64,000 nucleotides of DNA from an uncultured Acidobacteriota bacterium (GTDB lineage Bacteria; Acidobacteriota; Terriglobia; UBA7540): positions 736,001-800,000 of the forward strand of contig CAWDSK010000005.1 in assembly GCA_963804995.1 (NCBI GenBank). The letters are read 5' to 3'. The notes under the pieces are model-generated. The model was not told the origin of the DNA. It did no database searches and saw only the letters and a program-made list of their open reading frames with translations. Of this stretch, positions 17,710 through 33,455 are shown in pieces. The position numbers and the translations under genes are program-made. Every line of letters starts with the position of its first letter. Position 1 is the first letter of the stretch.

Positions 17710-18168
17710 TCATTGATCTTGGTAGACATTCAAGAGCTGTAGCCGCGTGGCCTCAAGGCGCTCCTCGACGACATGCGCGAATCGTTTCAGGAGTTCGTAA
17801 CCCAGATCGTGGTCGCGTTCGGCTTTTTCGCGAAGACACTTTCCATCCGCGGCAAAGGCGCGAGTGCCCTCGATTGTTTGGGCGGAGAACTTCCAACGGT
17901 AAGGAGGAAAAAGCCAAGACCACCCCAGGATTTCACCGGCGTGGAGGGTTAGGATAGTTAGGGGGCCACGTCGTTCGGAATGTATCCGCAGCGCCACTTT
18001 CCCTTGGCGGATCAAGTAGAAATGATTGGCCTCTTCGCCTTCCTGGAAAATAATCTTTCCAGCCTCGAAGCGCACGTTGGAAACACAGCCGACGATGGTC
18101 TCGATGTGTCGCGCGGGCAGATCATGGAAAAACGGATGCGCACTCAGAATACCTTGTAGAGTTTCCAT
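17710..18168 (-). CDS. Stand-alone cyclic-nucleotide-binding domain protein
   Basis: IFQEGEEANHFYLIRQGKV…GEILGWSWLFPPYRWKF; no HTH. Confidence 0.88.
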   Translation of the reverse strand: METLQGILSAHPFFHDLPARHIETIVGCVSNVRFEAGKIIFQEGEEANHFYLIRQGKVALRIHSERRGPLTILTLHAGEILGWSWLFPPYRWKFSAQTIEGTRAFAADGKCLREKAERDHDLGYELLKRFAHVVEERLEATRLQLLNVYQDQ

Positions 18169-18377
18169 GATGCCCCTCCTCCATCGATGGGATCAGATTG
18201 GGTTTTGGTTCTTCCCCCGACCTTGGCGCCACGGCTGGATGCGACTTCCGCCCGTACGCGCCTTTCCTGGGAGGAGGCGGATTTTGTTACGCCCCGCACT
18301 GCGCCCACCCACCTGTTTTAATCCGGTTGCGGCGTAACGCGCCCACACAGAATGGGACTTCGGGTTACCCGAGCCCG

Positions 18378-18836
18378 CTACTTTTCGACCGCCACAAGGT
18401 GCACTGAAAGTGCCTCTACGCGATTCTCGATAATTTGCGCAAATCGTTTCATGAGTTCGTACCCAAGGTCGTGGTCTTCGTCACATCTGGCACAAACGCT
18501 CCTTCCGTCCAAGGAGATGGCCCGTGTGACATCGAGCGCTTTGGCCGTGAATTTCCAGCGGTAGGGCGGAAAAAGCCACGACCATCCGATGATGTCTCCT
18601 TCTTCGAGGGTCATCAGCGTCAAGGGTTCGACACGGTAGGAAACAAGTTGCAATGCCACCCTGCCGTTCCGAATCAGATAACAACGCTGCGCCGGTTCAC
18701 CCTCTTCGAAGATTAAGTCTCCGGGCTCGAACCTCACGACGGTTGCGCTCTCGACGAGGGTTCGGAGATGTTGTTCCTTCATACCCCTAAGCAATGGATT
18801 TTCGCCCAACACCTTCTCTAAAGTTATAGTCTCCAT
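18378..18836 (-). CDS. Stand-alone cyclic-nucleotide-binding domain protein (paralog)
   Basis: IFEEGEPAQRCYLIRNGRV…GWSWLFPPYRWKF; start at ATG 18836. Confidence 0.88.
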   Translation of the reverse strand: METITLEKVLGENPLLRGMKEQHLRTLVESATVVRFEPGDLIFEEGEPAQRCYLIRNGRVALQLVSYRVEPLTLMTLEEGDIIGWSWLFPPYRWKFTAKALDVTRAISLDGRSVCARCDEDHDLGYELMKRFAQIIENRVEALSVHLVAVEK

Positions 18837-18849
18837 GGTTCTCCTCCCC

Positions 18850-19368
18850 TTAAGATTCTTTGTCGACACACTTACCCGTGACGATGGATTTACCGCACGC
18901 TAACTCTTCGAGGGTCTCCTGATACAGCTTTTCCTCGGTAACTTTCTTGGGCGCCAACCCCAAGGCAACCGCCACCCCGTAAAGGATGGCCTCGGGTCGT
19001 GGCGGACACCCGGGAACGTAAAAATCAACCGGAATAACCTTGTCTGCGCCTCCCATCACGTTATAGGTGTCGAACCAGCAGCCGCCTCCCGTCGCACAGG
19101 AGCCGATAGCGAACGTAAGCTTCGGATTGGGAACGGCCTCTACCAACCTCTTGAGCGCCGGCGCAACCTGTCGTGTGACGGGGCCGCTAACCAAGAGGAC
19201 ATCCGCGTGCCGGGGAGAGCCCACGAGCTTGATCCCGAAACGCTCGGCATCATAATAAGGAGTGAGAACATTGATAACTTCGATATCACACCCGTTGCAC
19301 GCCCCGCAGTTGGCGTGGTACACCCAAAGCGCTTTGGGAAACGCCTTCTTGCAGAGACCTTTTAGCAT
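18850..19368 (-). CDS. hyfI: Group 4 [NiFe]-hydrogenase small subunit (HycG/HyfI/NuoB-like)
   Basis: CGACNGCDIE, SPRHAD, GSCATGGG, VPGCPPRP. Confidence 0.9.
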   Translation of the reverse strand: MLKGLCKKAFPKALWVYHANCGACNGCDIEVINVLTPYYDAERFGIKLVGSPRHADVLLVSGPVTRQVAPALKRLVEAVPNPKLTFAIGSCATGGGCWFDTYNVMGGADKVIPVDFYVPGCPPRPEAILYGVAVALGLAPKKVTEEKLYQETLEELACGKSIVTGKCVDKES

Positions 19369-19427
19369 GCTCGCACCTCATGCAAATAGATCAACCACGA
19401 TCGGCTGACGGGAGGCAGAGAATCGCG

Positions 19428-20939
19428 TCACCTTCGCAGGGTAGCCAGCACTGCCGCCGCGCGGTCCAGCAGCGGGTATGGCATTTGGGGGTAAATTCCA
19501 AGCAATCCGCACATTCCCGCCAAAAACACCATGGGGAACCACATTCGCGCCGGCACTTCCCTTACCACCGAGGCGGAGTTACTGCTCGATCCTGGGTCAC
19601 CCCAAAACACTCTGTACGCTGCTCGAACCATCACGACCATGGTCAAAATACTCACCAGGACGGCGATGACTGCCGCCCACCACAACCCGGCTCTGGCGAG
19701 GGCCAAATACACGGTCAGTTTGCTCCAGAATCCATTGAGTGGCGGAAAGCCCGCAATCGCCAGTGCCCCTAGAAAGAAACAGGCGCTCGTGATCGGCATC
19801 TGCTTTCTGAGCCCGCCCAGCTCGCTGATTCGCCGAGCGCCCGTGGCATACATCACTGCGCCCACGCACATGAACAACAGTGACTTGTAAAGCGCATGGT
19901 TGAGTAAGTGAAAAAGGCCGCCATAACATCCCAGGTAAGTCCCAAGCCCGATGCCGACCAGCACATAGCCCATCTGGCTTACGGATGAATACGCCAGGAG
20001 CCGCTTGAGGTCGTTTTGGGGCAAAGCCAGGATGATGCCCAGCAGCATGGTGAACGTGCCCAGCGCCACGAGGAAGATCGTGACCTGAGGCCAGGCGGGG
20101 TAGAAGATGCTCACCGTGCGGGCCAGGGCATACAGCGCCATCTTGATCATCACGCCTGACAGCAGCACGCTAATCGGCGTCGGCGCCTCGGCGTGCGCGT
20201 CTGGGAGCCAGGGATGAAACGGCGCAATGCCCGCTTTGGTCCCAAATCCAATCACGAGAAACGCGATGGCAATCGCCGCCGTGCCGCTGGGTATGAATTG
20301 CACCACGTTGCGGATGTTGCTGATCAGCAGGGCGCTCGCTCCTCCCAGCTTATCCGTGGCCGCCGCACCGGCGTAGAGCAACACGCAACCGAACAGGGCG
20401 AAGGTAATCCCAATGGTGAGCAACATGAGGTACTTGTAGCCCGCTTCCAGCGCGCGGCGGTCCCAATAGAAGGCCACCAGCAGGCCTGAGGTGAGTGTGG
20501 TGGCTTCAATGGCGACGTAGAGCATGATCACGTTGTTGGTGACGCATCCCCATAACATGGTCCCGAGAAACCACATCAGCAGACCATAGAATATGCGAAG
20601 GCGGCGCGCGGTCGTGTCCTTGGCCAGGTGCTCCTCGAGGTATCGTACGGAGTAAATCGAGGTGAGCAGTCCGACCCCGCCGATGATGACCACCATTAAG
20701 GCACTCAAGGCATCGACGCGGAGTTCGCCGCTCCAGGTTGTCAGGACCGCCCCCTGCATGATCCGGTAGGCCATCCAAGCGCTCAACCCGGTGACAAGCG
20801 CCGCTGTACTAACGGATAACCATTGTTGAAAAGCGCGACCCAGGCGCGTTGCCGAGAATATGATTGCGCCCGTCGCTAGCGGCAAGAGGAATATAATCGC
20901 GGGTAGGACGGATGTTTCGTTGAGCGGCTCGCTCGCCAT
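19428..20939 (-). CDS. hyfF: Antiporter-like membrane subunit (HyfF/NuoM-like)
   Basis: LEAGYKY, WLPDAHAEAPTP, LKRLLAYSS; many TM segments. Confidence 0.85.
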   Translation of the reverse strand: MASEPLNETSVLPAIIFLLPLATGAIIFSATRLGRAFQQWLSVSTAALVTGLSAWMAYRIMQGAVLTTWSGELRVDALSALMVVIIGGVGLLTSIYSVRYLEEHLAKDTTARRLRIFYGLLMWFLGTMLWGCVTNNVIMLYVAIEATTLTSGLLVAFYWDRRALEAGYKYLMLLTIGITFALFGCVLLYAGAAATDKLGGASALLISNIRNVVQFIPSGTAAIAIAFLVIGFGTKAGIAPFHPWLPDAHAEAPTPISVLLSGVMIKMALYALARTVSIFYPAWPQVTIFLVALGTFTMLLGIILALPQNDLKRLLAYSSVSQMGYVLVGIGLGTYLGCYGGLFHLLNHALYKSLLFMCVGAVMYATGARRISELGGLRKQMPITSACFFLGALAIAGFPPLNGFWSKLTVYLALARAGLWWAAVIAVLVSILTMVVMVRAAYRVFWGDPGSSSNSASVVREVPARMWFPMVFLAGMCGLLGIYPQMPYPLLDRAAAVLATLRR

Positions 20940-20974
20940 AGGGTCGTCCCTCTGCACTTACCGTTTGACCGCGA

Positions 20975-21649
20975 TTACCACCTTAGTTCCCGCAGCCGAA
21001 ACGTATCCGTGGATCCAAATGCCATTCGTACTCCGCCTATCACGTACAGGAGAAGGAATACGGTCACCACCACTTCCGTCGCGACGCCGAAGAGCGCGGT
21101 TTCCGGCAACCCGGGAGCTAGGCTCACCAGACTCAGGTGTACGCCGTTTTCAAGCAGGCAGAGCCCGATCACCGTTTTGATTGCGTCGCGACGTGTCAGC
21201 ACTGCGTACAGGCCCAGCGCGAAAACCGTGGACGCCACCGCCAGATTCGTTCGGAACACATCGAGTTGCCCCAATGCGGTGGGCGCGAGAAGCGTGGTTC
21301 GAGCGTGGGTGAGATGGAAGAAGCCTAACATCAGCAAGGCGGCGATCACGGCGGAGGGGCCAAAGCCAATCACCGGCTTTAATTCCTTGTCATCCACATC
21401 ACGAATCGCCCGGAACAGGAACCAGGGTGTAAGGATCGCCTTCGTGACCAGGGCGGTGGCAGCCCACCAGTAGAGGGCGTGGTTGACCGCCGCAAAGCTC
21501 AGGAGCAGACCCACAATCAGGAGCGCCTGACAGAGGTAGGCGACAATCGAAAACTTGAGCCGCCGCATCTCCACCGCCGCCACCGAAGTAATCACCAGGG
21601 TCAGGCTCAGGGTCTCGATTAAACTTGCGTGCAGCGCCTCCGGGTTCAT
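20975..21649 (-). CDS. hyfE: HyfE-like membrane subunit
   Basis: Hydrophobic; TKAILTPW and GLCLLENG motifs. Confidence 0.8.
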   Translation of the reverse strand: MNPEALHASLIETLSLTLVITSVAAVEMRRLKFSIVAYLCQALLIVGLLLSFAAVNHALYWWAATALVTKAILTPWFLFRAIRDVDDKELKPVIGFGPSAVIAALLMLGFFHLTHARTTLLAPTALGQLDVFRTNLAVASTVFALGLYAVLTRRDAIKTVIGLCLLENGVHLSLVSLAPGLPETALFGVATEVVVTVFLLLYVIGGVRMAFGSTDTFRLRELRW

Positions 21650-22098
21650 GCCCTTCCTCCGTCCTCGCCACCCCTGAAACCGGTTTTCATCATCCGGTCA
21701 AGCGCCGTGGGGGGCGGGAAGCACCGGCCGCATCTTTGGCAGGGCCCCATGAAAACCTCCAGCCGCATGTACATGTCCTGGGGAGCGTTGGTGGCGGTTT
21801 CGAATTGTTGGCTGAGGCGGATTGCCTTTTCGGGGCAGACTTCTTCGCACCTGCCGCAATACGTGCACCGGCGCCAGAAAAACTCCAGCACCCTTTTGTA
21901 CTGTTCCGCGTCCGACAGCACAATCACGCCGGCCGGGCAGACGTTTGCGCATCCGCCGCATCCGAAGCAGAGATCGGCATCGAGCGTGATCTTGCCGCGG
22001 AACCCGGGTTTGGGATCGTGGGGCGCAAACGGGTATCCGAGGGTCACCCGTCCGGCCTTCAAGCAAATCAGCGCTTCTCGCAGCTTGCTGAGGAACAC
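21646..22098 (-). CDS. hyfH: 2x[4Fe-4S] ferredoxin subunit (HycF/HyfH/NuoI-like)
   Basis: FRGK, CFGCGGCANVCP, CTYCGRCEEVCP, CQRCG. Confidence 0.88.
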   Translation of the reverse strand: MFLSKLREALICLKAGRVTLGYPFAPHDPKPGFRGKITLDADLCFGCGGCANVCPAGVIVLSDAEQYKRVLEFFWRRCTYCGRCEEVCPEKAIRLSQQFETATNAPQDMYMRLEVFMGPCQRCGRCFPPPTALDRMMKTGFRGGEDGGRA

Positions 22099-22122
22099 CG
22101 TAACCTCCTGCCAGTCTCAGTT

Positions 22123-22178
22123 GATGTAGCGCCGACCTTCAGGCCGGCATGTGCTGACCTCAAGGTCAGCGCTACATC
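22123..22178. repeat. REP-like palindrome (GATGTAGCGC…GCGCTACATC)
   Basis: Intergenic inverted repeat with internal hairpins. Confidence 0.7.
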
Positions 22179-22196
22179 CGACGGCCGCGTTCGGCC

Positions 22197-23114
22197 CTAC
22201 TTCCCAATCACCGCAAAGGCCAGGGCGGCCAGCGACGATACCCCGACCCGCATGAAATAACCCATGGCCTGATCGATGCGCAGCCGCGGATTTACGACAT
22301 CGACCAATGTCACCAGCGCCAGCACCACGAGCACCTTCACGATGGTCGTGACGAGATCGATCAGATAGATTCCAGAGTGCGGCCAAGGGAAGAACACTTC
22401 CACCAGCAAGAAAGCGAGCACGAGTTGCTTCACCCACATCGCCCAGCGGAAGAGCGCCAGGCGTGGACCGCTTTGCTCGACCAATGGACCGCCCATGATT
22501 TCCTGGTCGGCCTCGGCAATGTCGAATGGCAACTTGCCAGCCACGGCTTGCAGCGCCAGGAAAAACGCCACGCCCCCTATCGCCATACTGATGCTGGGTC
22601 CGTCCTGCACCTGCCAGTCGGCGATGCCGCCCAGCGCCAAGGTTCTGGCCTTGAACGCCCCCACCGTGAGAGCGATGGCCAGGATGGGTTCAACCGATAG
22701 AAGCATCATCATCTCGCGCGAACTGCCGATCGACGCATAAGGGCTAGCACTGGCAAACCCTGCCAACATAATCGCGACACTGCTCATCGCCGCGACATAG
22801 AGCACCACAATCAAATCGCCGGCGAAGGCGAGCGGCGCGACCGTTCCCATGGGAACCAAGGCGGCAAGCAGCAGCACTGATCCCAGCGTGAAAGCCGGCA
22901 GGCTCGCGTAAACGATTCCACCCGTACTTCGCAGGTCCTCCTTGCCCAGGAGTTTCAAGAGGTCCCAATAGGGTTGCGTGATGGGGGGCCCGATTCGCGA
23001 ATGGATTGTGGCGCGAAGCTTGCGCATAAGGCCTTCCGCAAGTGGCGACAACAACAGAGCGGCCGCCACGTTCAGCAAGCAGAGCAGAAGAATCTTAGCG
23101 AGCCAAACGATCAT
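22197..23114 (-). CDS. hyfC: Membrane subunit HycD/HyfC/NuoH-like
   Basis: RIGPP…DLLKLLGKE, PFDIAEADQE. Confidence 0.9.
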   Translation of the reverse strand: MIVWLAKILLLCLLNVAAALLLSPLAEGLMRKLRATIHSRIGPPITQPYWDLLKLLGKEDLRSTGGIVYASLPAFTLGSVLLLAALVPMGTVAPLAFAGDLIVVLYVAAMSSVAIMLAGFASASPYASIGSSREMMMLLSVEPILAIALTVGAFKARTLALGGIADWQVQDGPSISMAIGGVAFFLALQAVAGKLPFDIAEADQEIMGGPLVEQSGPRLALFRWAMWVKQLVLAFLLVEVFFPWPHSGIYLIDLVTTIVKVLVVLALVTLVDVVNPRLRIDQAMGYFMRVGVSSLAALAFAVIGK

Positions 23115-24817
23115 CGCCGTCCTCCGCCGCGAGGATTCTTTCTGGACATCTCCAGAATCTCCGCGCGGGAATACACCTTGACCTCATTCGTTCTTCGATC
23201 CACTGTCTCCAGGCGTTCCGTGCAGGAAAAACAGGGGTCGAGACTCCCCAGCGTGATCGGCACGTCCGCGATGTTTCCATCGGTGACCATTGCCGGCAGA
23301 GCCTGCAAGTTGGGATAAGTTGGGGCACGTACTCTCCAGCGATACGGCCGATTATCACCGCCCGTCAGCACAAAGTGGACGGCCTCGCCCCGCGGCGCCT
23401 CGACCACCGACACCCCAATTCTCCCCGGCGGTATCGCCTCCTTGATCTCCGTGCAAATTGGCCCCTCGGGGATTGCCGACAGAGCCTCGCGCACCAGGCG
23501 AATGGATTCCATCAACTCGGTGATGCGCACCAGCACGCGCGCCCAGGTATCACCCGCCACCTCGGTGGCAATCCGGGGGGGGAGTTCGTCATACGCCGCG
23601 TAGGGGTGATCGAGCCGCGCGTCGATGGCCACCGCCGAAGCTCTGGCCGGCGGGCCCACGGCACAGGTTTTTTTCGCCCAGTCGTTCGTGAGCACGCCCA
23701 CTCCCTTGGTGCGGGCATGCAGCGTGGTGTCTCCCACCACCGCGTCGCGAACTGCCACGGATTGCTTTTCCACCTCGGCCAGTATCTCCAGGAGCTTGGG
23801 CTTCATTTCATTTGAGAGATCGCGCCGCAGCCCGCCGATGGTATTCATCCCATAGGTTTTGCGGTTTCCGGAGATCTCTTCACAAAGCCACATCACAGGC
23901 TCGCGAATCCGCCAGGTCTGCATGAGCACCGTTTCAAAGCCGATGATGTGCCCGGCAATACCCAACCAGAGCAGATGGGAATGGATACGTTCCAACTCCA
24001 GCATGATCGTGCGGATGAACCGGGCCCGGCGCGGCGCCTCGATGCCCGCTGCCTTCTCCACCGCCTGGCAATAGGCGGTGGAATGAATGAAGCCGCAAAT
24101 CCCGCATATTCTCTCGGCCAGATACGGGATTTCGTTGTAGGTCAAAACGCTGTCACCGAGTTTTTCAATTCCCCGGTGGTTATAGAAGAGGCGGGTGTCG
24201 CATCCCACCACCGTTTCACCTTCGACGAACATGCGCCAGTAGGAAGGTTCCTCCAGGACCGGGAAGAACGGCCCCAGTGGCAACACACTGGCGCCAGCGG
24301 GAGGGTCACGCAGTTGCGGAGCTACATTTTCAGCGCGCGGAGGCCGGTAGTTATAAGGAAAATCCTTGCGCAATGGATAGACGCCCTCCGGCCAGTCGTC
24401 GGCCAGGAGCAGGCGGCGGGGATCGGGATGGCCTTCGGGATGCACTCCGATGGCATCGCGGAATTCCCGCTCCGCCCAATTGGCCCCCGGGATGATCTCG
24501 GTAATCGATTCAATCTTGAGGTCCGTTTCGGACACGGGAGATTCCAGCAGAACGTAGAGATGCGCACGGTCCAGGGAGAAGAGGTGTAAAACTGCGAAGT
24601 TGCCGGTAAGGGATCGGGTATCCGTGCCCACCGAAATCATGAAGCGCGCACCCAACTCGTTGACCAGCGCGTCCACCACCGCTCGCATGGCCTTCTTATC
24701 GATCACGAAGTGAAGGGTATCGGCGTGAGGTTGCGTCCCTGACAGGAAAGCCTCGTCGCTGCGTGCGGCGACTGTTTCCTCAACCTGCGTAACCGTCCGC
24801 TGCTCGGTAATAATCAT
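23111..24817 (-). CDS. hyfG: Group 4 [NiFe]-hydrogenase large subunit (HycE/HyfG, NuoC+D fusion)
   Basis: Ni-binding ERICGICG and DPCFSCTER followed by a cleavable C-terminal extension; GHPDPRRLLL in the NuoC part. Confidence 0.92.
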   Translation of the reverse strand: MIITEQRTVTQVEETVAARSDEAFLSGTQPHADTLHFVIDKKAMRAVVDALVNELGARFMISVGTDTRSLTGNFAVLHLFSLDRAHLYVLLESPVSETDLKIESITEIIPGANWAEREFRDAIGVHPEGHPDPRRLLLADDWPEGVYPLRKDFPYNYRPPRAENVAPQLRDPPAGASVLPLGPFFPVLEEPSYWRMFVEGETVVGCDTRLFYNHRGIEKLGDSVLTYNEIPYLAERICGICGFIHSTAYCQAVEKAAGIEAPRRARFIRTIMLELERIHSHLLWLGIAGHIIGFETVLMQTWRIREPVMWLCEEISGNRKTYGMNTIGGLRRDLSNEMKPKLLEILAEVEKQSVAVRDAVVGDTTLHARTKGVGVLTNDWAKKTCAVGPPARASAVAIDARLDHPYAAYDELPPRIATEVAGDTWARVLVRITELMESIRLVREALSAIPEGPICTEIKEAIPPGRIGVSVVEAPRGEAVHFVLTGGDNRPYRWRVRAPTYPNLQALPAMVTDGNIADVPITLGSLDPCFSCTERLETVDRRTNEVKVYSRAEILEMSRKNPRGGGRR

Positions 24818-24966
24818 GCCCATCTCCTCAGCGCCTGTGCAAAAACGTCGGACTGGAGCAGCAGTCTCTGCGGCTCTGCCGCCCCGCTGTGCGGAAAGGC
24901 TTCGCCTTTCCGGACCACATGTGCCCGAACCAACCTCCTTCGTGCGGAGGTCCATTTGAATCTACT

Positions 24967-25147
24967 TCCCTCGCCCCCTTGGGGGAGAGGGTGGCCCGCT
25001 GCCGGCGCTTTCATCAGCCGGGGCGGGACGGGTGAGGGGGTCTAAACCGTAGGGCCTAATTCCGAATTGGCCCAGTGCATTCATGTCGGTACTAACCCCC
25101 TCACCCACCGCCTTGCGGTTCCCCCTCTCCCCCAAAGGGGCGAGGGC
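24967..25147. repeat. Pair of REP-like elements (CCCTCGCCCCC…GAGAGGG…GGGTGAGGGG family) in inverted orientation
   Basis: Same family at 55324-55720, including the shared tcatcagccggggcgggacgggtgagggg. Confidence 0.75.
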
Positions 25148-25181
25148 AGTAATTTCAAAATAATGCGCCCAGTCCGCACAC

Positions 25182-25437
25182 CGCCCGGCACAGCCGCCCT
25201 CGGACCAGGTTTTGACATGGTAAATCAGCACCACCCCGGCGCTCGGCGCGCCACCCCTCCTCATCTGAGGAGGGGAGCATTTTCGTGATAGCGCCCGGCA
25301 CAGCCGCCCTCGGACCAGGTTTTGACATGGTAAATCAGCACCACCCCGGCGCTCGGCGCGCCACCCCTCCTCATCTGAGGAGGGGAGCATTTTCGTGACA
25401 GCGCCCGGCATAGCCACCCTCGGACCAGGTTTTGACA
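25182..25437. repeat. 110-bp tandem repeat, about 2.3 copies, each full unit with a CCCCTCCTCA-tc-TGAGGAGGGG hairpin
   Basis: Units start at 25182, 25292 and 25402; nearly identical. Confidence 0.9.
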
Positions 25438-25445
25438 CAGGCTCC

Positions 25446-27440
25446 TCACCCCCTCACCAGCAGGAGGATCGTCGTCACAATGACGGCGCCAATCACGATC
25501 CACAGAAGATAGATCTGCGGGGTTCCCACGTGCGTTCTGCTCACGCGGTCTGCGGCCCTATCGATAAGTTTGACGACCGGCGTATACAGCCACCGGTCAA
25601 AATCGAGCGCGCGGCGAAGGGGAGCCGGAAACTTCGGTACATGGACTTGTCCGCTGGGATAGATTCCCTGGAACGCGTGTTTGAAGGGCAAGTAAAAACT
25701 GCTGGCGGGATAGCGGACCGTAGCCGGAACGTGTTCTTCTCCGCAGTACCAGACCGGCGCCGACCGCACTTCGGCTCCACCCGCGCGCTGAATGCCATAG
25801 GAAATCAATGCCAGGATTGCCAACGCTGCCAGCATGGCGAGGGGTGACCAGAATCCGGATCCATCCGTGAGTGACAGGCCACCCCATAACCGGCTCGCAT
25901 CCACACCCACTGCTGCCATGCCCGTAACACCCTCGATAGCATTCCCGACGAAACGCAACATAAGCTGGGGAAAGATGCCGAGCAGAACGCAGAGGGCGGC
26001 AAGCACCACCTGCGGCACGACCATGGATATCGGCACTTCCTTAATTGCCCGGCGCTCATCACCGTTGCCGAAAAAGACGGAGCCGAGCACCTTCAGGAAG
26101 GAAGCGAGCGTGGCGAGCGAAATGAAAAGCGCTACCAGACCCAGCACGAGGAATAAGGGAAATCGCATTCCGGCCAAGAGGCACCCGGCGACGATCAGCC
26201 ACTTGCTCGAGAACCCGTTGAAGGGTGGCACCCCCGCGATGCTCAAGGAGGCGATGGTGGTCGTGCCGGCGGTGTACGGCATGAAACTCCCCAGGCCCCC
26301 CAGCTTGTCCATGTCGCGCAGGCCGGTGCGGTAAAGGACTGAACCCGCTCCCAGGAACAAGCATGACTTGAAGCAGGCATGGTTTATCGCGTGCAAAATT
26401 GCACCCGCGAGAGCAATCGAGGCCAGGGCCGGGTACATCTCCAGACAATAGGCGCCCACACCTAACCCGAGGCAGATATAACCGATTTGTCCGATGGTGT
26501 GGAAGGCCATCAGCCGCTTGGTGTCGGTCTGCCGCAGTGCGGTCAACGTCCCTACGAAAAGCGATCCGGTGCCCGCGAGGGCCAGAATAATTCCCCAGAT
26601 CCGGAGCGACGGTGACGCCGCGAGAAATGAGCAGAAGAGGCGAACCAGGCCATAAATTCCCAGTTTGACGAGTGCACCGGAAAGCGTGGCGCTCATCCCG
26701 GAAGGTGCAACGGGATGGGCGTCGGGGAGCCAATCACCCATGGGCAGGATTCCTGCTTTGGTGGCAAATCCCAAGAAGAAAAGGAAGACGACGGAGTGAG
26801 CGAGGTACGGCCGGGTGTCGAGCAGCGCGGTCAACGTTTGCCGGATGGAGTCGAAAGAAAATGACCCGGACGTCCTCCAGAGCAACAGTGCCGCGGCCAC
26901 CATGCACAGCGTGGCGCCGTGGGTGATGATGAAATACTTCAAGCCCGCCCGCTGGCTCGCCGGGTTCTCGCTCTCAAACGTCACCAGGAAATAGGAGGTC
27001 AGCGTCATGGACTCCCAGAAGATGAGGAAAAACAGGAAATCCGTACACACCAGGACTCCGGTCATGCTGGCCACGCAGAGAAGAAGCAGCGGGAAGAACT
27101 TTGCGACCTTATCGTGCTTGTAGTGCTCCATGTACCGCACGGAGTAGAGCGTGCTCAGCAGAGCAATCACGGCCACGATGGTAAGGAAAATGGCGCTCAG
27201 TGGATCAACCCGCAGGGTGAAGCGGGCGCCCAGTTGGGGTAGCGAAAGAAGCGAATGTTCGTCTGAGGCCACCGTCGAGGCCCCTACCACCGCGAGCCCC
27301 GTAAACACCGTGGAGGCGCTAACGAAAGCGAAGCTGACCCAGCCACACACTTTCCGGTTGCGCGCAAAGAGCAGGCTCACCAGTGACCCTAGGACCAAGA
27401 TCACAATACTGGCTTCGATGTTGCGAACGGCATTCATCAT
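25446..27440 (-). CDS. hyfB: Antiporter-like membrane subunit (HyfB/HycC-like)
   Basis: 664 aa; WLPDAHPVAPS, KRLMAFHT, NHACFKS, WYCG tail. Confidence 0.85.
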   Translation of the reverse strand: MMNAVRNIEASIVILVLGSLVSLLFARNRKVCGWVSFAFVSASTVFTGLAVVGASTVASDEHSLLSLPQLGARFTLRVDPLSAIFLTIVAVIALLSTLYSVRYMEHYKHDKVAKFFPLLLLCVASMTGVLVCTDFLFFLIFWESMTLTSYFLVTFESENPASQRAGLKYFIITHGATLCMVAAALLLWRTSGSFSFDSIRQTLTALLDTRPYLAHSVVFLFFLGFATKAGILPMGDWLPDAHPVAPSGMSATLSGALVKLGIYGLVRLFCSFLAASPSLRIWGIILALAGTGSLFVGTLTALRQTDTKRLMAFHTIGQIGYICLGLGVGAYCLEMYPALASIALAGAILHAINHACFKSCLFLGAGSVLYRTGLRDMDKLGGLGSFMPYTAGTTTIASLSIAGVPPFNGFSSKWLIVAGCLLAGMRFPLFLVLGLVALFISLATLASFLKVLGSVFFGNGDERRAIKEVPISMVVPQVVLAALCVLLGIFPQLMLRFVGNAIEGVTGMAAVGVDASRLWGGLSLTDGSGFWSPLAMLAALAILALISYGIQRAGGAEVRSAPVWYCGEEHVPATVRYPASSFYLPFKHAFQGIYPSGQVHVPKFPAPLRRALDFDRWLYTPVVKLIDRAADRVSRTHVGTPQIYLLWIVIGAVIVTTILLLVRG

Positions 27441-27441
27441 G

Positions 27442-28908
27442 CTATTTCCCCATTAACTGCACTAAGGGCATGCCCACCAGCGGGGCTACCACGCAGCCGA
27501 TCATCAGGATGACCAAAGTGGAATCCATGGGCCACGGTGGATCAACCGGGACTTCCACCGGCACCAGGGGCGCCCCCAGGAAGATTTTTTGGGCGATGTA
27601 AAGCATCCATCCGAAGGAGACCAGCGTTTCGACAAGGATGAAAATAACGATGAGCGGTCCGAGGGGGCCGGGAAGACGCATGGCGCCCGAGAGAATCATG
27701 AACTTGCTCCAGAAGCAGGCGAGCGGAGGAACTCCGGTAACACTCAGGAGCCCCACGAAAAATGCCGTAGCCGTGAGGGGCAAGATTTTTCCCAGGCCGC
27801 GCAGCGCTGATATTTTGCGCGTTCCGGTGACATAGGCGATGCTACCCGCGCAGAAGAAGAGGGTCGCCTTGCTGTAACCGTGACAGATGATGTGCAGTAC
27901 AGCGCCCCGGAAACCCAGGGTTGACCCCATCGCTCCGATGGCGATGCCCAGGAACACGTACCCGAGATGAGCAATGGTTGAATAGGCAAGCAACCGCTTC
28001 AGATCATCCTGAACGAAATAGAAGGAGAGAGCGACGAAAATGGTGAGCAGCGCCATGCCGGCCATGAGCAATGCTATCTTCGGTGGAATGTCCCACCCGC
28101 TACTCACCGTCCTGGCCATAAGGAAGACGCCGGCTTTGACCATCGCTGCGGCGTGGAGGTAGGCGCTGATGGGAGTCGGCGCCTCCATAGCATCCGGCAA
28201 CCAGGTATGCAGGGGCACCTGCGCTGCCTTGGCCCAGGCTGCAATCAGGATAAAGAGCAAAACCCAGGATTTGAGACCCTCGGGCAGCCGGCTGAGAGCA
28301 GAGAACTCAAAGGAATTGGTATGAGCAAAAATAATAAGAATGGCCAGCAGCAGGAAGGCGCTACCGACATGCGTCATCAAAAGGGCTTTGAATCCGGCCC
28401 GTAAGCTGCGCTCGTTCTGGTGAAAAGAGATCAGGGCCCACGAACACAAAGTGGTCATTTCCCAGAAGACGAGGAACTGAAGGAAATTAGGCGAAACCGC
28501 CACACCCGCCATGCTGGTGATGAACAACAGGAGCCAGAAATAGTACCGGCCGTAATGCTCACTCCCTACCGGGTGCTCCCGGTTCTTGTCGGTAAGGTAG
28601 GAAGTGGAATAGAGGACGGTCAGCAATCCGATGGGCACCGCCACCAGCAGCATCAAGCAAGCCAGGGGATCGATCAGAATCCCCAAAAGGGGCGCATCGA
28701 CGATGCCATGCAGCCAGGGAAGGCTTCCCAACATTTGGGTGGAAGCGGCGCCGAAGGTGGAAACTGCCAGCCATGCCGCAAGGCCGGTGACTATGGCGGC
28801 AATTGTTACCGCCGCGGGGCGGGCGCGTTCTTTCAGAATCACGCACAGCAGGGCTCCCGCCGCGGGCAGGATCAGCATGAGGACGGCAATTGAGGTGGTC
28901 AGGTCCAT
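27442..28908 (-). CDS. hyfD: Antiporter-like membrane subunit HyfD
   Basis: WLPDAMEAPTPISAYLHAAAMVKAG. Confidence 0.88.
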   Translation of the reverse strand: MDLTTSIAVLMLILPAAGALLCVILKERARPAAVTIAAIVTGLAAWLAVSTFGAASTQMLGSLPWLHGIVDAPLLGILIDPLACLMLLVAVPIGLLTVLYSTSYLTDKNREHPVGSEHYGRYYFWLLLFITSMAGVAVSPNFLQFLVFWEMTTLCSWALISFHQNERSLRAGFKALLMTHVGSAFLLLAILIIFAHTNSFEFSALSRLPEGLKSWVLLFILIAAWAKAAQVPLHTWLPDAMEAPTPISAYLHAAAMVKAGVFLMARTVSSGWDIPPKIALLMAGMALLTIFVALSFYFVQDDLKRLLAYSTIAHLGYVFLGIAIGAMGSTLGFRGAVLHIICHGYSKATLFFCAGSIAYVTGTRKISALRGLGKILPLTATAFFVGLLSVTGVPPLACFWSKFMILSGAMRLPGPLGPLIVIFILVETLVSFGWMLYIAQKIFLGAPLVPVEVPVDPPWPMDSTLVILMIGCVVAPLVGMPLVQLMGK

Positions 28909-28936
28909 ACCTTTTTTCTCATCGGCGCGAGGCGCC

Positions 28937-29025
28937 TTGGAGTGCGGTAGCAGCAGCTACCGCCTTTCCACATTTGCCGTATGAACCGAAGGCGGAAGGC
29001 GGTAGCTGCTGCTACCGCACTCCAA
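28937..29025. repeat. REP-like inverted repeat (TTGGAGTGCGG…CCGCACTCCAA family)
   Basis: Overlaps the 3' end of hycI; the family recurs at 29547-29675, ~63436 and ~63735. Confidence 0.8.
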
Positions 29026-29508
29026 AGCTCGCCTGCGGCGAGCCGCCTCAAAAACTTCGTTCAACACCTCGGCAATGCTCGCCACGCTCGAGTGCACCTC
29101 GCCGCTCATCGGTTGCATAAAAGCCGTGTGCCGCGGCTGAATCGCAATCAGACAGAGGTGCGCGTGCGTTTCCCGCTCGAGGTAGTCCATGAGCAGGGTT
29201 ATGGGGACGCGGTGCGTGCTCGGCCAGTAACCCGCCACTTGCTCCTTATCCAAAAGCGCTACGGAGCCAGGGGCGGAATTCAAATCGACGGAGTCAATCA
29301 GCACCACGGTGTCGGGCCGCTCGTCTACCACTTGGCGAAAGTAATTTTCGGGAACCTCCTGGGCATCGATCACACGCACTCCGGGGGCGTCGCTGAGCAG
29401 TTGGGCCAACAGGCTGCCGGCGGCGTCATCGCCACGGCAGGGATTGCCTATGCCCATGATTACGACGTTGCCTTGAATTGCGGCGGCGAGTTGTTCTTGT
29501 AAGTCCAT
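28957..29508 (-). CDS. hycI: Hydrogenase maturation endopeptidase HycI-like
   Basis: GIGNPCRGDDAAG, PEN, IDSVD and STH motifs. Confidence 0.88.
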   Translation of the reverse strand: MDLQEQLAAAIQGNVVIMGIGNPCRGDDAAGSLLAQLLSDAPGVRVIDAQEVPENYFRQVVDERPDTVVLIDSVDLNSAPGSVALLDKEQVAGYWPSTHRVPITLLMDYLERETHAHLCLIAIQPRHTAFMQPMSGEVHSSVASIAEVLNEVFEAARRRRALECGSSSYRLPPSVHTANVERR

Positions 29509-29546
29509 ATTGCCGACTCGTGCGAACTCCTGCGCGAATGCGAACC

Positions 29547-29675
29547 TTTGGAGTGCGGCAGCTCGCTGCCGCTTTCCTCCCCGCGAGCTTGCTCGCGGGA
29601 ATTGCAACAGAGAACGTAAATGTCAGCCAACAACCTGGCTGGTGCAAAAGCGGCAGCGAGCTGCCGCACTCCAAA
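29547..29675. repeat. REP-like inverted repeat (TTGGAGTGCGG family)
   Basis: tttggagtgcggcagctcgctgccgcttt…aaagcggcagcgagctgccgcactccaaa. Confidence 0.8.
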
Positions 29676-29679
29676 ATCC

Positions 29680-30501
29680 CTACTCCACCAACCCCGCGAT
29701 CTCGCGATAATTGAAAACCGGCCCATCGCGGCATACGTAGCGATGGCCGATGGCGCAGTGATTGCACTTGCCGATGCCGCACTGCATCATGCGTTCCAGG
29801 GTGGAGATGACCGCCTCTTCCTTAAACCCGCGCGTAAGGAGGTCACGGACCACGAACCGGATCATGATGGGCGGGCCGCAAACATAGGCCAGAGTGGATT
29901 CCGGATGCAGGGTGACCTTCTGGAACAAAACGGGGACCACCCCCACATTTCCCGTCCAATCGGGCTCGGCCACGTCCACCGTCACGAGGAGTTTCACATC
30001 GGAGCGCTTTCCCCACACTTCCAATTCATCCTTGTAAACCAGGTCATGGGGCGTCCGGGCGCCGTAGAGAATGGTCACCTTGCCGAAGCGGTCGCGCTCA
30101 TCCAGGACGTTCCAAATCAGGCTGCGCAGCGGGGGCAATCCAATGCCGCCGGCCACAAAGAGCATGTCCTTGCCGCGCGCCGCCTGCACGTCGAAGCCAT
30201 TGCCGAAGGGACCTCGGATGCCCACCTCGTCACCATTTCCCAGCTTGTGCAACTGATCGGTCAACTGCCCCGTGCGCCGCACCGTCGTTTCCAAGGCCCC
30301 GGGCCGCGTGGGGCTGGAGGCAATGCAAAACGGCGCCTCGCCGCAGCCGAACACGGAAAGTTCCAGAAACTGTCCGGGAAGGAAATGAAAATGATTCCCA
30401 TTCTCGTGGTCCCGGAAGCGCAAAGTGAAGGTCTTGGTGTCGGGCGTCTCATCCCGGACCTTCTCAAGGCAGGCAATCTCCGGAAGGAAAACGTCATTCA
30501 T
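29680..30501 (-). CDS. FAD/NAD(P)-binding [2Fe-2S] subunit (sulfhydrogenase gamma HydG/AsrB-like)
   Basis: PGQF, RGPFGNGF, AGGIGLPPLRS, CGPPIM, MQCGIGKCNHC…VCRDGPVF. Confidence 0.9.
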   Translation of the reverse strand: MNDVFLPEIACLEKVRDETPDTKTFTLRFRDHENGNHFHFLPGQFLELSVFGCGEAPFCIASSPTRPGALETTVRRTGQLTDQLHKLGNGDEVGIRGPFGNGFDVQAARGKDMLFVAGGIGLPPLRSLIWNVLDERDRFGKVTILYGARTPHDLVYKDELEVWGKRSDVKLLVTVDVAEPDWTGNVGVVPVLFQKVTLHPESTLAYVCGPPIMIRFVVRDLLTRGFKEEAVISTLERMMQCGIGKCNHCAIGHRYVCRDGPVFNYREIAGLVE

Positions 30502-31534
30502 GCCATTTCCCCTTCCTGATGGCGGCCACCACCGCCGGCATGTGGGTCGTGCCTAAGCACGTCTTGATGCATCTCCCGCAACCCACACAGCCCACCGTGC
30601 TGTCGCGGGTGAAATACTGCGCACTCACTTTGTGGAAGAAACGGCGCTTCATCCGCTCCTTGCGATTTGCCCGCGGATTGTGTCCGGAAGCTTCGAGAGT
30701 GAAGGCGGTGTACTGGCAGGAATCCCACGTGCGGCAACGAACCCATGTGCCATTCTGGCGGAGATCCTTCACGCTGAAGCAGTAGCAGGTGGGGCACACA
30801 AAGTTGCATCCGCCACACTCGAGACACCAGTCCGCCATCTTCTCCCACAGCGCATCTGGCACACGGCCGGTTGAGATGCGCCTCATAGCCGAGGCGAAAT
30901 GGCAGGTCTCTGGCCCAAAACGGGCTTTCGCCGCTACCTCCAGTGCCTGACGCTGGGCGATTGCATATTCGCTGGCTTTCCGGAAGAGGTCCGGCGCCTT
31001 GGCCATCCCCGCCTCACCCTTTGCGCTGCCTACCTCGACGAGAAAGAGCCCGCCTAGATCCGTCAATTGCAGGTCGTAACTGTTACTCAAGAAGGGTCCT
31101 GAATCCGTACAGACACAGAAACCCGGAGGGCACGGAGTGGTGCAGGCCAGGCTGATGATCGTGAGGTTGTGGGCACGGCGAAGGTAGGAAGCGTCCGCGG
31201 GCTCCGCTTCGTGCATGCGCGTGAGGAAGGCGATTCCCTTCACATCACAGCTACGCACGTTGAAGAGGGTGCGGGGGGCGTTGTCGTAAACGGGCTCGAC
31301 TTCGTGGCGTTGACCGTTGAGCTTGATTTTAACCAGGGGGTCGGTCTGAGGCAGGACAAATTGCTTCGGTGGGTGAAGGGGGTTCTCAAAATCCCACAGG
31401 ACCTGACTGGGGGAACTGAGCGTCGAAAAGATAACATCCCCGCAGGGGCCACGCACCGGAGCGATGACCTCTCCAGCCTCTAGCAGCTTTGCAAGCCATC
31501 TGGTTGTGCCTTCTCTTGGTATCGTGAAGACCAT
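30494..31534 (-). CDS. Fe-S subunit (sulfhydrogenase beta HydB/AsrA-like)
   Basis: RSCD, CLECGGCNFVCPTCYC, WDSC, CVGCGRCIKTC. Confidence 0.9.
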   Translation of the reverse strand: MVFTIPREGTTRWLAKLLEAGEVIAPVRGPCGDVIFSTLSSPSQVLWDFENPLHPPKQFVLPQTDPLVKIKLNGQRHEVEPVYDNAPRTLFNVRSCDVKGIAFLTRMHEAEPADASYLRRAHNLTIISLACTTPCPPGFCVCTDSGPFLSNSYDLQLTDLGGLFLVEVGSAKGEAGMAKAPDLFRKASEYAIAQRQALEVAAKARFGPETCHFASAMRRISTGRVPDALWEKMADWCLECGGCNFVCPTCYCFSVKDLRQNGTWVRCRTWDSCQYTAFTLEASGHNPRANRKERMKRRFFHKVSAQYFTRDSTVGCVGCGRCIKTCLGTTHMPAVVAAIRKGKWHE

Positions 31535-31544
31535 TGCTGGCCTC

Positions 31545-33455
31545 TTAGGCCTGTTCTACCTTAACGGCCGTGACACTGTGCGTTCCCAACACGTCGACAA
31601 GATAATCGCGAAAAGCATAAGGCACATGTAGCACGCCGGGCTGGATATCCGACCTAACTCGAATCGGAACCACCGCACTTCCATGGAGGGAGGTCAACCT
31701 GACCGGCCGTCCCGGGTGCACACCGATTCCGTCAGCATCCTGCTTCGAGACCTCGACAAAACCCTTGGGGAAGAGCTTTCGCTCGGATTGGGAGTCACGA
31801 CATAATGTCGGCGAAAACGAGACAAGTGGGTCGCGACCCCAATCATAAGCGCAATCACGGACGAGCACATGCTGGCCCTCAGTAGGATTTAGACACAGTG
31901 GTTCCGCGACATGGAGTCTGAACTTTTCGCCATTTGAGCTTTTTGCCGCACCTCTGAGGTCCCACTTATCGTCCCACTTGTTCGCCTCCGAGCGTCTTAG
32001 CGCGCGTTGTCCCACCTCATTCAGAAGGTCCGCAAGTGAAGTGTATGAAGCACTGGCGTCAAATCGCGCACAGAGCTCCGCGAGCACTTGCCACCCAGGT
32101 CGCGCGTCGCCCGGCGGATCCGTGGCCACATGGAGTTCTTGGATTCTGCCTTCCATATTGGTGATGGTTCCTTCCGTTTCCGCAAAGCTCGCAATCGGCA
32201 GTACGACGTGGGCCATCTGTGCAGTGGGTGTGAGGAAGGCATCCAGCACCACAAGGAATTCCATTCTCCCCAGCGCAGCTAGGGCCCGCTGCCCAATCGG
32301 AAGGACCGCAAGGGGATCGTCGGCCAAAACAATCAGAGCGCTCACGGATTGCAAGATGCTCTCTGCATCCAAACCAGGAGTTGAGGGCAGTTCCTTTCCC
32401 CAGAGATCTTGCAGGCGCTGCCGAGCACGTTCGTCATCCAAGCGTTGGTGCCCGGGCAAGCGATCCGGAGCGATTCCCATGTCGCAGGCCCCTCGCACAT
32501 TGCTCCGCGCGAGAAGCGGCAATAGCCCGGAACCAGGCCTGTCCAAATGCCCCGTGACTGCCGCCAACGTGGCAAGGGCCGCGGCAACTCTCCGACACTG
32601 GTGGCCCTCTCCGCTGACCGGTGGAATCAAGAACGTCGCTCGCGTGGCACGCGCGATCCACTCCGCTGCCTGGCGCATCTCTGCGGATGCCTTGATGGTC
32701 CCGAGGTTCCGCCGCAGTGCGTCATACCCTTCGCAACCGACCCCAACTGACGCCCGATCTTCCAGCCCGAGGTGCAGCACCGCGGCGAGCAGCCCATCGA
32801 TTACTTCACCTTCATTCCCCGGCATCGCGGTCAACAGCAGGGAAGCCAGTCGCGACATCTGCGTTCCGGTATAGCCTATGGTTATAAGGTGGGCGCCTTT
32901 TTCTACTGCGGCCATCACCGCCGAAGCAGCGCGCGGGTGAGTAGTAGCCAAATCACCTTCCATCAGCAAGATCGTTTGGCTTGATTCGATGTCATTCAGA
33001 CTGAGGGACGGAGTGCATTCGCCACAGACTTCTTCAAGACCTGCCAATAGCGGGCCACACACGGAGTGGTAGGAAAAATCTAGGTTGTTGGTTTGGAGGC
33101 CAGCCCGTGCCAGCTTGCCAGCCAGGTAGTTCTCCTCATTGGTTGCCCGGGCAGAACCAAGAACGCCCACAGATTTCCCCGCGGCGATTAATTCCTTGAT
33201 GCGCCCTGCAACGAGGTCAAGAGCCTCAGACCACGAGGCAGAGTCCAGCTTCCCGTTCCGGTTAACCAGTGGCTGCCGCAACCGTTCACCCCACAAGGCA
33301 GCCTCATGGGCACTCCACCCCCGGGCGCAAAGCTTTCCCAGGGACACCGGATGGCTTTCACTCGGCGCCACGCCCACCAATCTTGCTTGGTTCGCTAACA
33401 AGTAAAACCCGCAGCCACAAGCGCAAAACGGGCACGTGGTGGGGACGGGTAACAT
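31545..33455 (-). CDS. FdhF-like molybdopterin-oxidoreductase-fold protein with a degenerate active site
   Basis: TTCPFCACGC…KLCARG Fe-S motif, TNEENY, NVRGACDMG, PIASFAETEGTITNMEGR; GGAGG RBS before ATG 33455. Confidence 0.85.
   Translation of the reverse strand: MLPVPTTCPFCACGCGFYLLANQARLVGVAPSESHPVSLGKLCARGWSAHEAALWGERLRQPLVNRNGKLDSASWSEALDLVAGRIKELIAAGKSVGVLGSARATNEENYLAGKLARAGLQTNNLDFSYHSVCGPLLAGLEEVCGECTPSLSLNDIESSQTILLMEGDLATTHPRAASAVMAAVEKGAHLITIGYTGTQMSRLASLLLTAMPGNEGEVIDGLLAAVLHLGLEDRASVGVGCEGYDALRRNLGTIKASAEMRQAAEWIARATRATFLIPPVSGEGHQCRRVAAALATLAAVTGHLDRPGSGLLPLLARSNVRGACDMGIAPDRLPGHQRLDDERARQRLQDLWGKELPSTPGLDAESILQSVSALIVLADDPLAVLPIGQRALAALGRMEFLVVLDAFLTPTAQMAHVVLPIASFAETEGTITNMEGRIQELHVATDPPGDARPGWQVLAELCARFDASASYTSLADLLNEVGQRALRRSEANKWDDKWDLRGAAKSSNGEKFRLHVAEPLCLNPTEGQHVLVRDCAYDWGRDPLVSFSPTLCRDSQSERKLFPKGFVEVSKQDADGIGVHPGRPVRLTSLHGSAVVPIRVRSDIQPGVLHVPYAFRDYLVDVLGTHSVTAVKVEQA

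Follow-up and report, generated by a model that had tools for sequence, protein, structure and literature searches.

We examined a 64,000-nucleotide stretch of DNA (hereafter the window) from the genome of an uncultured Acidobacteriota bacterium of the Terriglobia (assembly GCA_963804995.1, contig CAWDSK010000005.1, positions 736,001–800,000), which carries a gene cluster for a group 4 membrane [NiFe] hydrogenase preceded by genes for an FdhF-like protein and a HydB–HydG flavin module. All 14 open reading frames (ORFs) lie on the minus strand in the order fdhF-like, hydB, hydG, hycI, hyfD, hyfB, hyfG, hyfC, hyfH, hyfE, hyfF, hyfI and two cNMP-binding-domain genes; ORF calls together with Pfam and NCBIfam profile matches bore out both the order and the families given in the initial annotation of this DNA. 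HyfD and HyfI passed the NCBIfam cut-offs, and the matches of HydB, HydG and FdhF were below the equivalog cut-offs. The FdhF-like protein lacks the residues of the molybdenum (Mo) site. Judging from sequence comparison, we propose with moderate confidence that the cluster encodes an NADH:H+ oxidoreductase whose electron input is through HydG and HydB, in the places of formate and HycB.

The FdhF-like protein

The first gene (31545–33455, minus strand; 636 aa, counted from the probable true start at 33455) is predicted by profiles, alignments and an AlphaFold model to encode a pseudo-enzyme that has lost its catalytic residues and kept the cysteines of its Fe-S cluster, a status on which the initial annotation had not remarked. 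The [4Fe-4S] ligands C8, C11, C15 and C43 are retained. Compared with E. coli FdhF and the FdhF of the hydrogen-dependent CO2 reductase (PDB 7qv7), the Mo ligand is replaced by Val132, the catalytic His by Cys133 and Arg333 by Leu315. We aligned 47 FdhF-like proteins of this family with 66 catalytic formate dehydrogenases, all taken from the loci retrieved (see below). The Mo ligand and Arg333 were each found in 0/47 and His141 in 1/47 of the family, and each was present in at least 90% of the catalytic enzymes. Forty-eight positions conserved in ≥90% of the catalytic enzymes were kept in ≤20% of the family, and 53 positions were kept in ≥80% of it, including the four [4Fe-4S] cysteines (94–100%). 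The positions lost include K44, D202, P203, Q335, N336, G402, T579, R581 and K679, which we take to be cofactor contacts. The AlphaFold model (pLDDT 89) shows an intact FdhF fold (TM 0.86).

The intact fold would also suit a variant formate hydrogenlyase, in which a Mo or W cofactor held through Cys133 oxidises formate or another substrate and the electrons are split between H2 and NAD+. Formate hydrogenlyase is how the available part of one source annotates the operon of “Ca. Sulfotelmatobacter” SbA1 (PMC6018796, Table S2j), and Cys133 and Arg317 are conserved in 116/120 and 119/120 of the closest homologues, respectively. We nevertheless consider it very unlikely. Cys133 occurs in 27/47 of the wider set and is missing from most of the distant orthologues, for which reason it was rejected as a shifted Mo ligand, and the 48 lost positions argue against catalysis. 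No FdhD, PFL, FocA-family formate channel or catalytic formate dehydrogenase (with Sec/Cys-His and Arg) was found in the source genome, where the PF00384 matches other than the FdhF-like protein were to NuoG only. Because the assembly is 92% complete, absences from this genome are read here as “not found”. FdhD was present in 3/20 genomes carrying the cluster. The loss of formate dehydrogenase catalysis favours a pyridine nucleotide as donor more strongly, and to that extent the NAD(P)H input put forward in the initial annotation was strengthened.

The HydB–HydG module

The second gene encodes a HydB/AsrA/FlxB-type Fe-S protein (30494–31534, minus strand; 346 aa; NCBIfam). Fifteen of its cysteines were invariant in 47/47 orthologues, three more than are needed for its three four-cysteine sets, and its sole relative in the PDB was the beta subunit of sulfhydrogenase 1 (SHI; 9nez_B). 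The third gene encodes a HydG/AsrB/FlxA-type protein (29680–30501, minus strand; 273 aa; Pfam and NCBIfam) that retains the motifs for FAD, NAD and [2Fe-2S]. HydG Asp176 was invariant in three sets of orthologues (46/46, 59/59 and 20/20), whereas the NADPH-dependent SHI gamma subunit has Thr-Arg at this place; the NADH-linked NqrF and PyrK likewise have Asp at that strand end. We take Asp176 to be of the NADH type, and its invariance points to NADH as the probable substrate, so that the NADP side of the annotated NAD(P)H input was disfavoured. SHI gamma is also the closest solved relative of HydG, and Arg/Lys149 is conserved, as would fit an NADPH-specific version of the enzyme, in which H2 evolution is driven by NADPH with the export of one ion, or NADP+ is reduced from H2 for biosynthesis at the expense of the gradient. 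The yield would also favour this version (+149 to +268 meV for NADPH to H2 at 1–10 Pa), but with Asp176 invariant in place of the Thr-Arg of SHI gamma we rate its chances as slim.

In a quick HydG tree, 54 rows from operons with three or four antiporter subunits fell on one side of a branch with a support of 79. The group 3b rows fell outside in several groups, FlxA stood nearby with weak support, and the base was unresolved. The module is of a generic AsrAB/HydBG/FlxAB type, and the 3b-type origin originally assigned to it was not supported, as the operon HydG stands apart from 3b HydG and FlxA is near it at weak support. Fusions of HydB with HydG were found in 110 of the 120 long HydB relatives listed (the best 120 of 156). 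Two apparent single chains of FdhF-like protein and HydB (P0326 and P0318) were not counted, being partial matches and possible frameshift artefacts.

Hydrogenase subunits

HyfG (23111–24823, minus strand; 570 aa from the probable start at 24823; Pfam) is a group 4 [NiFe] large subunit of the fused NuoC+NuoD type. As had been annotated, both Ni-binding CxxC motifs are intact (ERICGICG, Cys codons within 24095–24106, and DPCFSCTER, 23222–23233), and all four Ni-ligand cysteines were present in 25/25 large subunits of the family. The protein is approximately 40% identical to E. coli HycE and HyfG, bears a HycE-like C-terminal extension, and had its best PDB match to HycE (422 bits versus 285 for Mbh). 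In a tree made without other group 4 references, the family large subunits formed a clade that excluded E. coli HycE/HyfG. Cys252 (numbered in the long hyfG ORF) was invariant in the 25/25 large subunits of the first set and is Ala in E. coli and in several Armatimonadota members.

The cluster has the further components of a group 4 enzyme, namely NuoB-, NuoI-, NuoH- and antiporter-like subunits, the HycI-type maturation protease (28957–29508, minus strand, probable start at 29508; NCBIfam) and, elsewhere in the source genome, HypF-, B-, E- and D-like ORFs (C3:946–952 kb; labels from reading the sequences). It differs from Ehr, in which the Ni ligands are lost, by having them. The five-subunit membrane arm HyfBCDEF that marks formate hydrogenlyase 2 (FHL-2) is present, all on the minus strand: the antiporter-like subunits HyfD (27442–28908; NCBIfam, above cut-off), HyfB/HycC (25446–27440; NCBIfam) and HyfF (19428–20957, with a start at 20957 or 20939; NCBIfam), the NuoH-like anchor HyfC/HycD (22197–23114; Pfam and E. 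coli comparison) and HyfE (20975–21649; NCBIfam). By alignment, HyfD, HyfB and HyfF all retain the Glu and Lys of the central axis. The small subunit HyfI/HycG (18850–19368, minus strand; 172 aa; Pfam) retains its four cluster cysteines and is approximately 80 aa shorter than its E. coli counterparts.

The ferredoxin HyfH/HycF (21646–22098, minus strand; 150 aa; AlphaFold pLDDT 66) has two [4Fe-4S] motifs and the family-specific C120-x2-C123-x2-C126. The second CxxC found in E. coli HycF/HyfH is missing, and so is the C-terminal part, which in HycF contacts HycB and faces FdhF according to the available part of PMC9474812. The third Cys, giving CxxCxxC, was invariant in 34/34 and 19/19 family members in two sets, and the motif is a candidate site for a new cluster that another subunit would complete. 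No HycB/HyfA/HydN linker ferredoxin was found in the operon, and two weak matches in the genome belong to other gene clusters. Nor does the operon contain HydA/HydD or AsrC, in agreement with the initial annotation. The remodelling of HyfH, with the HycB-contacting part lost and a third Cys gained, and the linkage to hydB and hydG were both counted in favour of input through HydB and HydG.

Conservation and distribution

Scans with the FdhF-like profile gave at least 80 genome loci and at least 80 metagenome loci. The final tally was 206 loci, 205 of them with a readable motif, and 192 after dereplication (117 non-catalytic and 75 catalytic). Many loci end 10 kb downstream and related loci are not independent; approximately 30 were picked by HydB, and for these only the link between the FdhF-like protein and the hydrogenase is informative. 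A non-catalytic FdhF was followed by hydB and hydG in 70/72 loci with at least 4.2 kb downstream, versus 4/59 for catalytic formate dehydrogenases. A group 4 large subunit lay downstream of non-catalytic FdhF in 59/61 loci with at least 10 kb, versus 0/41. The two misses among the non-catalytic loci (L081 and L177) were other proteins. HycB/HyfA matches occurred in 0/117 non-catalytic and 3/75 catalytic loci. The synteny of hydB and hydG with hyf genes, a check set beforehand, was conserved across two phyla.

A close FdhF-like homologue was present in 7/24 genomes of the same genus, and 6/6 of those retrieved kept the gene order, one with frameshifts. The nearest named relatives were Terriglobia metagenome-assembled genomes (MAGs). 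HydB matched in 8/301 genomes of the class, and the seven loci retrieved comprised six full operons and one short contig. The FdhF-like profile matched in 14/401 genomes of the phylum with three candidates scored per genome; five of the 10 retrieved belonged to the family. In the phylum of genome G437 (Armatimonadota by one source label), HydB matched in 34/181 genomes, and we retrieved 20 of these 34 loci, selected for long sequence and a range of scores. A non-catalytic FdhF-like gene was upstream in 20/20 and the hydrogenase was present in 19/19 that were long enough. A full operon was also found in one Gemmatimonadales MAG, the genome from which that search started and the only one of 251 in the Gemmatimonadota, and none was found in 181 Omnitrophota genomes at E 1e-85, in a search without a positive genome. 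The cluster is thus common in Armatimonadota and patchy in Acidobacteriota.

The membrane arm varied among relatives. Eight loci (L180, L181, L184, L185, L203, L218, L219 and L224) combine the FdhF-like protein, HydB and HydG with a single HycC-type antiporter, and some (L207, L170 and L173) have four antiporter subunits. The divergence of the FdhF-like protein, HydB and HydG tracked that of the large subunit (rho 0.94–0.96, pairwise over 22 loci), as shared descent would give and without being proof of contact.

Four loci (L026, L037, L044 and L063) have a catalytic FdhF followed by hydB and hydG with no hyf genes, and L179 has another order. Where read, such loci adjoin mobA-, fdhD- or moaA-like genes (labels from reading the sequences). 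In the catalytic loci of Clostridium and Desulfovibrionaceae, hydB and hydG are fused, and the position of Asp176 is not Asp in the fused forms. These loci likely encode a soluble NAD(P)-linked formate dehydrogenase, and a catalytic fdhF-hydB-hydG set is a plausible ancestor of the module. Since no hyf genes accompany them, the trio also occurs as a module on its own.

This raises the question of whether the trio might be a separate soluble diaphorase that is co-expressed with the hydrogenase and serves another partner (e.g. Hdr or Mvh) or is linked to it via a soluble carrier. Besides the four loci above, the position of FlxA close to the family in the HydG tree, at weak support, and the several distant loci that adjoin Hdr/Mvh or 3b operons would fit this explanation. 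Yet the non-catalytic trio was never found without group 4 genes among the family loci long enough to judge, there is no HycB to feed HyfH, HyfH is remodelled family-wide, and the Hdr-Flx cluster of the source genome has its own FlxAB. We therefore regard a separate diaphorase as improbable.

A partner for HydB and HydG encoded elsewhere was also sought. Neither a 3b HydA/HydD nor an AsrC above cut-off was found in the source genome, and AsrC was not found above cut-off in the 20 carrier genomes. A 3b-like HydA was present in 9/20 carriers, 8/9 of which have their own hydB/hydG; the other (G485) lacks them within the 10 kb retrieved. The other NiFe large subunits of the source genome are HoxH-like and MvhA-like, each in its own operon. 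In its region C3:946000–968500, hoxEFUYH-like genes, whose HoxF is a 1095-aa fusion with a long flavoprotein, share one cluster with hdrCBA-mvhDGA-like genes and with hyp genes. The HdrABC-Flx cluster, with an MvhD-FlxC-like fusion, lies at C5:390345–399214, and sat and dsrMK-like genes lie elsewhere (C3:1742888–1746844); a PF01077 search gave one 772-aa protein only, hence no dsrAB was found in the 92% complete assembly.

The carrier genomes also yielded several in-frame TGA codons. Two large subunits have TGA at both N-terminal Ni-ligand Cys codons (L220:11545 and 11554 in G1140; L221:11888 and 11897 in G1154), followed immediately by a hairpin of approximately −15 to −17 kcal/mol, and both genomes have a full-length SelB. 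These two genomes may encode a group 4 NiFeSe hydrogenase whose N-terminal motif contains two selenocysteines; known NiFeSe enzymes have one, in the C-terminal motif. The HydB matches of L210 (G1210) and L211 (G1274) each have one in-frame TGA. In the source genome, the SelB match (C5:338047–338958) spans profile positions 1–299 only, in a 365-aa frame that may be split or truncated.

Operon structure

The genes of the cluster are closely spaced at several junctions. The fdhF-like gene and hydB are 10 nt apart, hydB and hydG overlap by 8, hyfD and hyfB are separated by 1 nt, and hyfG/hyfC and hyfH/hyfE each overlap by 4. The wider gaps (hyfB–hyfG, hydG–hycI, hycI–hyfD and hyfC–hyfH) are filled by short palindromic repeats of several families with tens to hundreds of genome copies, at 24955–25437, 29547–29675, 28934–29028 and 22123–22178; one of these lengthens the hycI reading frame, whose 3' end enters it. 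The largest insertion (24955–25437, no strand), a 110-nt tandem unit plus a 45-nt inverted repeat with hundreds of genome matches, is not part of the system. The gap between hyfB and hyfG was considered as an operon break and rejected, as it is a repeat insertion. Since the wide gaps hold genome-wide repeats and hyfB abuts hyfG without a repeat in most relatives, the 14 genes are most naturally read as a single operon. A promoter/terminator scan gave promoter-like sites only at chance level and terminator-like matches that were short and uninformative.

The last two genes encode stand-alone cNMP-binding-domain proteins (18378–18836, probable start at 18836, and 17710–18168; both minus strand, Pfam). 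Such genes occur near the operon in 10/17 Acidobacteriota and 2/21 Armatimonadota loci and also flank bacterial 3b operons, homologues of the second lying within them. They were rejected as core parts on account of this patchy presence and treated as accessory.

Electron transfer and energetics

From the genes, the motifs, the loss of catalytic residues and the conserved linkage, we infer a mode of docking, NADH specificity, electron path, direction and ion coupling for the proposed NADH:H+ oxidoreductase. Electrons from NADH would enter at the FAD and [2Fe-2S] cluster of HydG and proceed to the [4Fe-4S] clusters of HydB. They would then pass via the cluster of the FdhF-like protein, a new cluster at the CxxCxxC of HyfH, or both, to the two clusters of HyfH, and finally via HyfI to the Ni-Fe site. 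The FdhF-like protein would stand in for HycB as a cofactor-less scaffold or relay, like the C-terminal half of NuoG in complex I. In anoxic, low-H2 settings the enzyme would reoxidise NADH as H2, each H2 paying for the export of no more than about one ion, and in reverse the ion gradient could drive NAD+ reduction from trace H2 through the same coupling.

Energy yields were computed per two electrons from midpoint potentials, with a 150 mV gradient assumed. On these figures, three ions per H2 would be out of reach and at most about one would be possible, only at trace H2. Pumping through three antiporter subunits, as the initial annotation had pictured it, thus fared poorly, and the eight loci with one antiporter likewise go against it.

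Several points weigh against the proposed NADH:H+ oxidoreductase. The yield from NADH to H2 is thin, +49 meV at pH 7, 1 Pa H2 and NAD+/NADH of 10. A more reduced pool, or pH 6, raises it to +108 to +167 meV. To attain 150 meV, H2 must be at ≤1 Pa and either the pool very reduced or the cytoplasm acid, and above approximately 10–100 Pa the yield is negative. The Asp176 signature is common to bacterial 3b HydG and FlxA, and Cys133, the neighbour of the lost Mo ligand, is near-invariant among close homologues. We know of no binding mode that joins HydB to a HycF-type protein, and no experimental study of any family member was found in the literature. The source genome also has a soluble Hox-type NAD-linked hydrogenase that already covers plain NADH/H2 exchange; the membrane enzyme must then offer more than this, and coupling to the gradient is the simplest candidate.

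Because the energy of NADH is too thin for the pumping originally pictured, a branched ferredoxin-fed enzyme retains some weight, although we think it unlikely. Ferredoxin would enter at HydB, at the FdhF-like protein or at the HyfH motif and power ion-pumping H2 evolution, with HydG exchanging electrons with NAD(H) in an Ech-/Rnf-like or confurcating manner. The energy shortfall would be removed, and the spare cysteines, three in HydB (invariant) and three in HyfH, would be accommodated. The source genome has four POR_N-family oxidoreductases and no RnfC above cut-off. On the other hand, the operon is without a ferredoxin gene, and a simple ferredoxin-fed Ech needs no HydG, which is kept in every family locus long enough to judge. 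The single FAD of HydG, moreover, belongs to the FNR/PyrK type, which is not known to act as a bifurcating flavin. A similarly described hydrogenase in Saganbacteria is likened to Mbh in the available part of PMC6349859, which would favour ferredoxin.

Comparison with known systems

The same or a similar arrangement is already on record from other genomes, where it is read as formate hydrogenlyase or as enigmatic. In the part of PMC6018796 available, Table S2j lists the SbA1 (“Ca. Sulfotelmatobacter kueseliae”) operon SBA1_80004–80015 as a group 4a formate hydrogenlyase that includes “putative subunits hyxB, hyxC”. This operon and ours are one and the same system: the 12 genes, their order and their lengths agree, its FdhF (P0100) is 62% identical to ours, and only the interpretation differs; that part takes up neither the missing Mo site nor an NADH input. 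All 12 genes were detected there in incubations (frequency 0.21–0.75), with fdhF and hyxB flagged up in one treatment. Supplementary Note 5 of PMC6349859, also available in part, describes in Saganbacteria RX5A/RX6A “enigmatic” group 4 hydrogenases with unclassifiable FdhF-like, AsrA-, AsrB- and CooF-like genes, proposed as an oxidoreductase module. By that description alone, RX5A resembles our cluster in having FdhF-like and AsrA/AsrB-like genes beside a group 4 enzyme; RX5A/RX6A differ in the CooF-like ferredoxin and two Mrp subunits, and no NADH:H+ mechanism is stated in that source.

FHL-2 (hydrogenase-4) of E. coli and Pectobacterium (PMC13645896, available part) has homologues of HyfB, C, D, E, F, G, H and I (28–40% identical) and shares the three antiporter-like subunits, the fused large subunit and an FdhF homologue. 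In contrast, our cluster lacks HyfA/HycB/HydN, HyfJ and FocB, has a non-catalytic FdhF, truncated HyfH and HyfI and a different gene order, and adds HydB and HydG. The latter two are homologous to proteins of the group 3b sulfhydrogenase (P. furiosus SHI, PDB 9nez), AsrABC and FlxAB, but soluble HydA/HydD and AsrC are absent and the operon HydG is placed apart from 3b HydG in the tree. Judged by the features compared, the cluster does not appear to be a formate hydrogenlyase, 3b, Asr or Ehr system.

The plan resembles that of complex I with NuoEFG, with an NADH flavoprotein, an Fe-S relay, a cofactor-less molybdopterin-fold subunit with one [4Fe-4S] cluster, a NuoBCDI-like core and three antiporter-like subunits. 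The flavoprotein, however, is of the FNR type with FAD instead of NuoF with FMN, and the acceptor is Ni-Fe instead of quinone; the likeness is a convergent solution, not membership. The available part of the HydDB table for subgroups 4a–4i gives formate, CO and ferredoxin as donors and no pyridine nucleotide (PMC5037454), and the available part of PMC10564751 and its supplement contains nothing on an operon of this kind. In the literature searched, mostly without subscription papers or bioRxiv supplements, no group 4 enzyme was described that is fed by NADH and has an inactive FdhF.

Implications

We tentatively suggest, as a possibility on the doubtful side, that these loci represent a widespread unrecognised class of group 4 enzymes that are direct, ion-coupled NADH:H+ oxidoreductases. 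Their complex-I-like input would have been built independently, from an FdhF-HydB-HydG formate dehydrogenase whose Mo site was disabled and which became connected to HyfH via a new inter-subunit Fe-S cluster at CxxCxxC. Wetland and sediment genomes would then contain formate hydrogenlyase annotations in need of correction. If docking and NADH use hold, pyridine nucleotide would become a fourth type of donor for group 4 beside formate, CO and ferredoxin, and the enzyme would be a present-day counterpart of the transition from hydrogenase to complex I, in which a cofactor-less FdhF takes the part of NuoG. The versions with one, three and four antiporters on the same input module would form a natural series for the question of how arm size relates to pumping. 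If the proposal is true, anaerobes living at trace H2 could conserve energy with NADH as the only donor, or spend the gradient on reducing NAD+ with H2 at trace levels.

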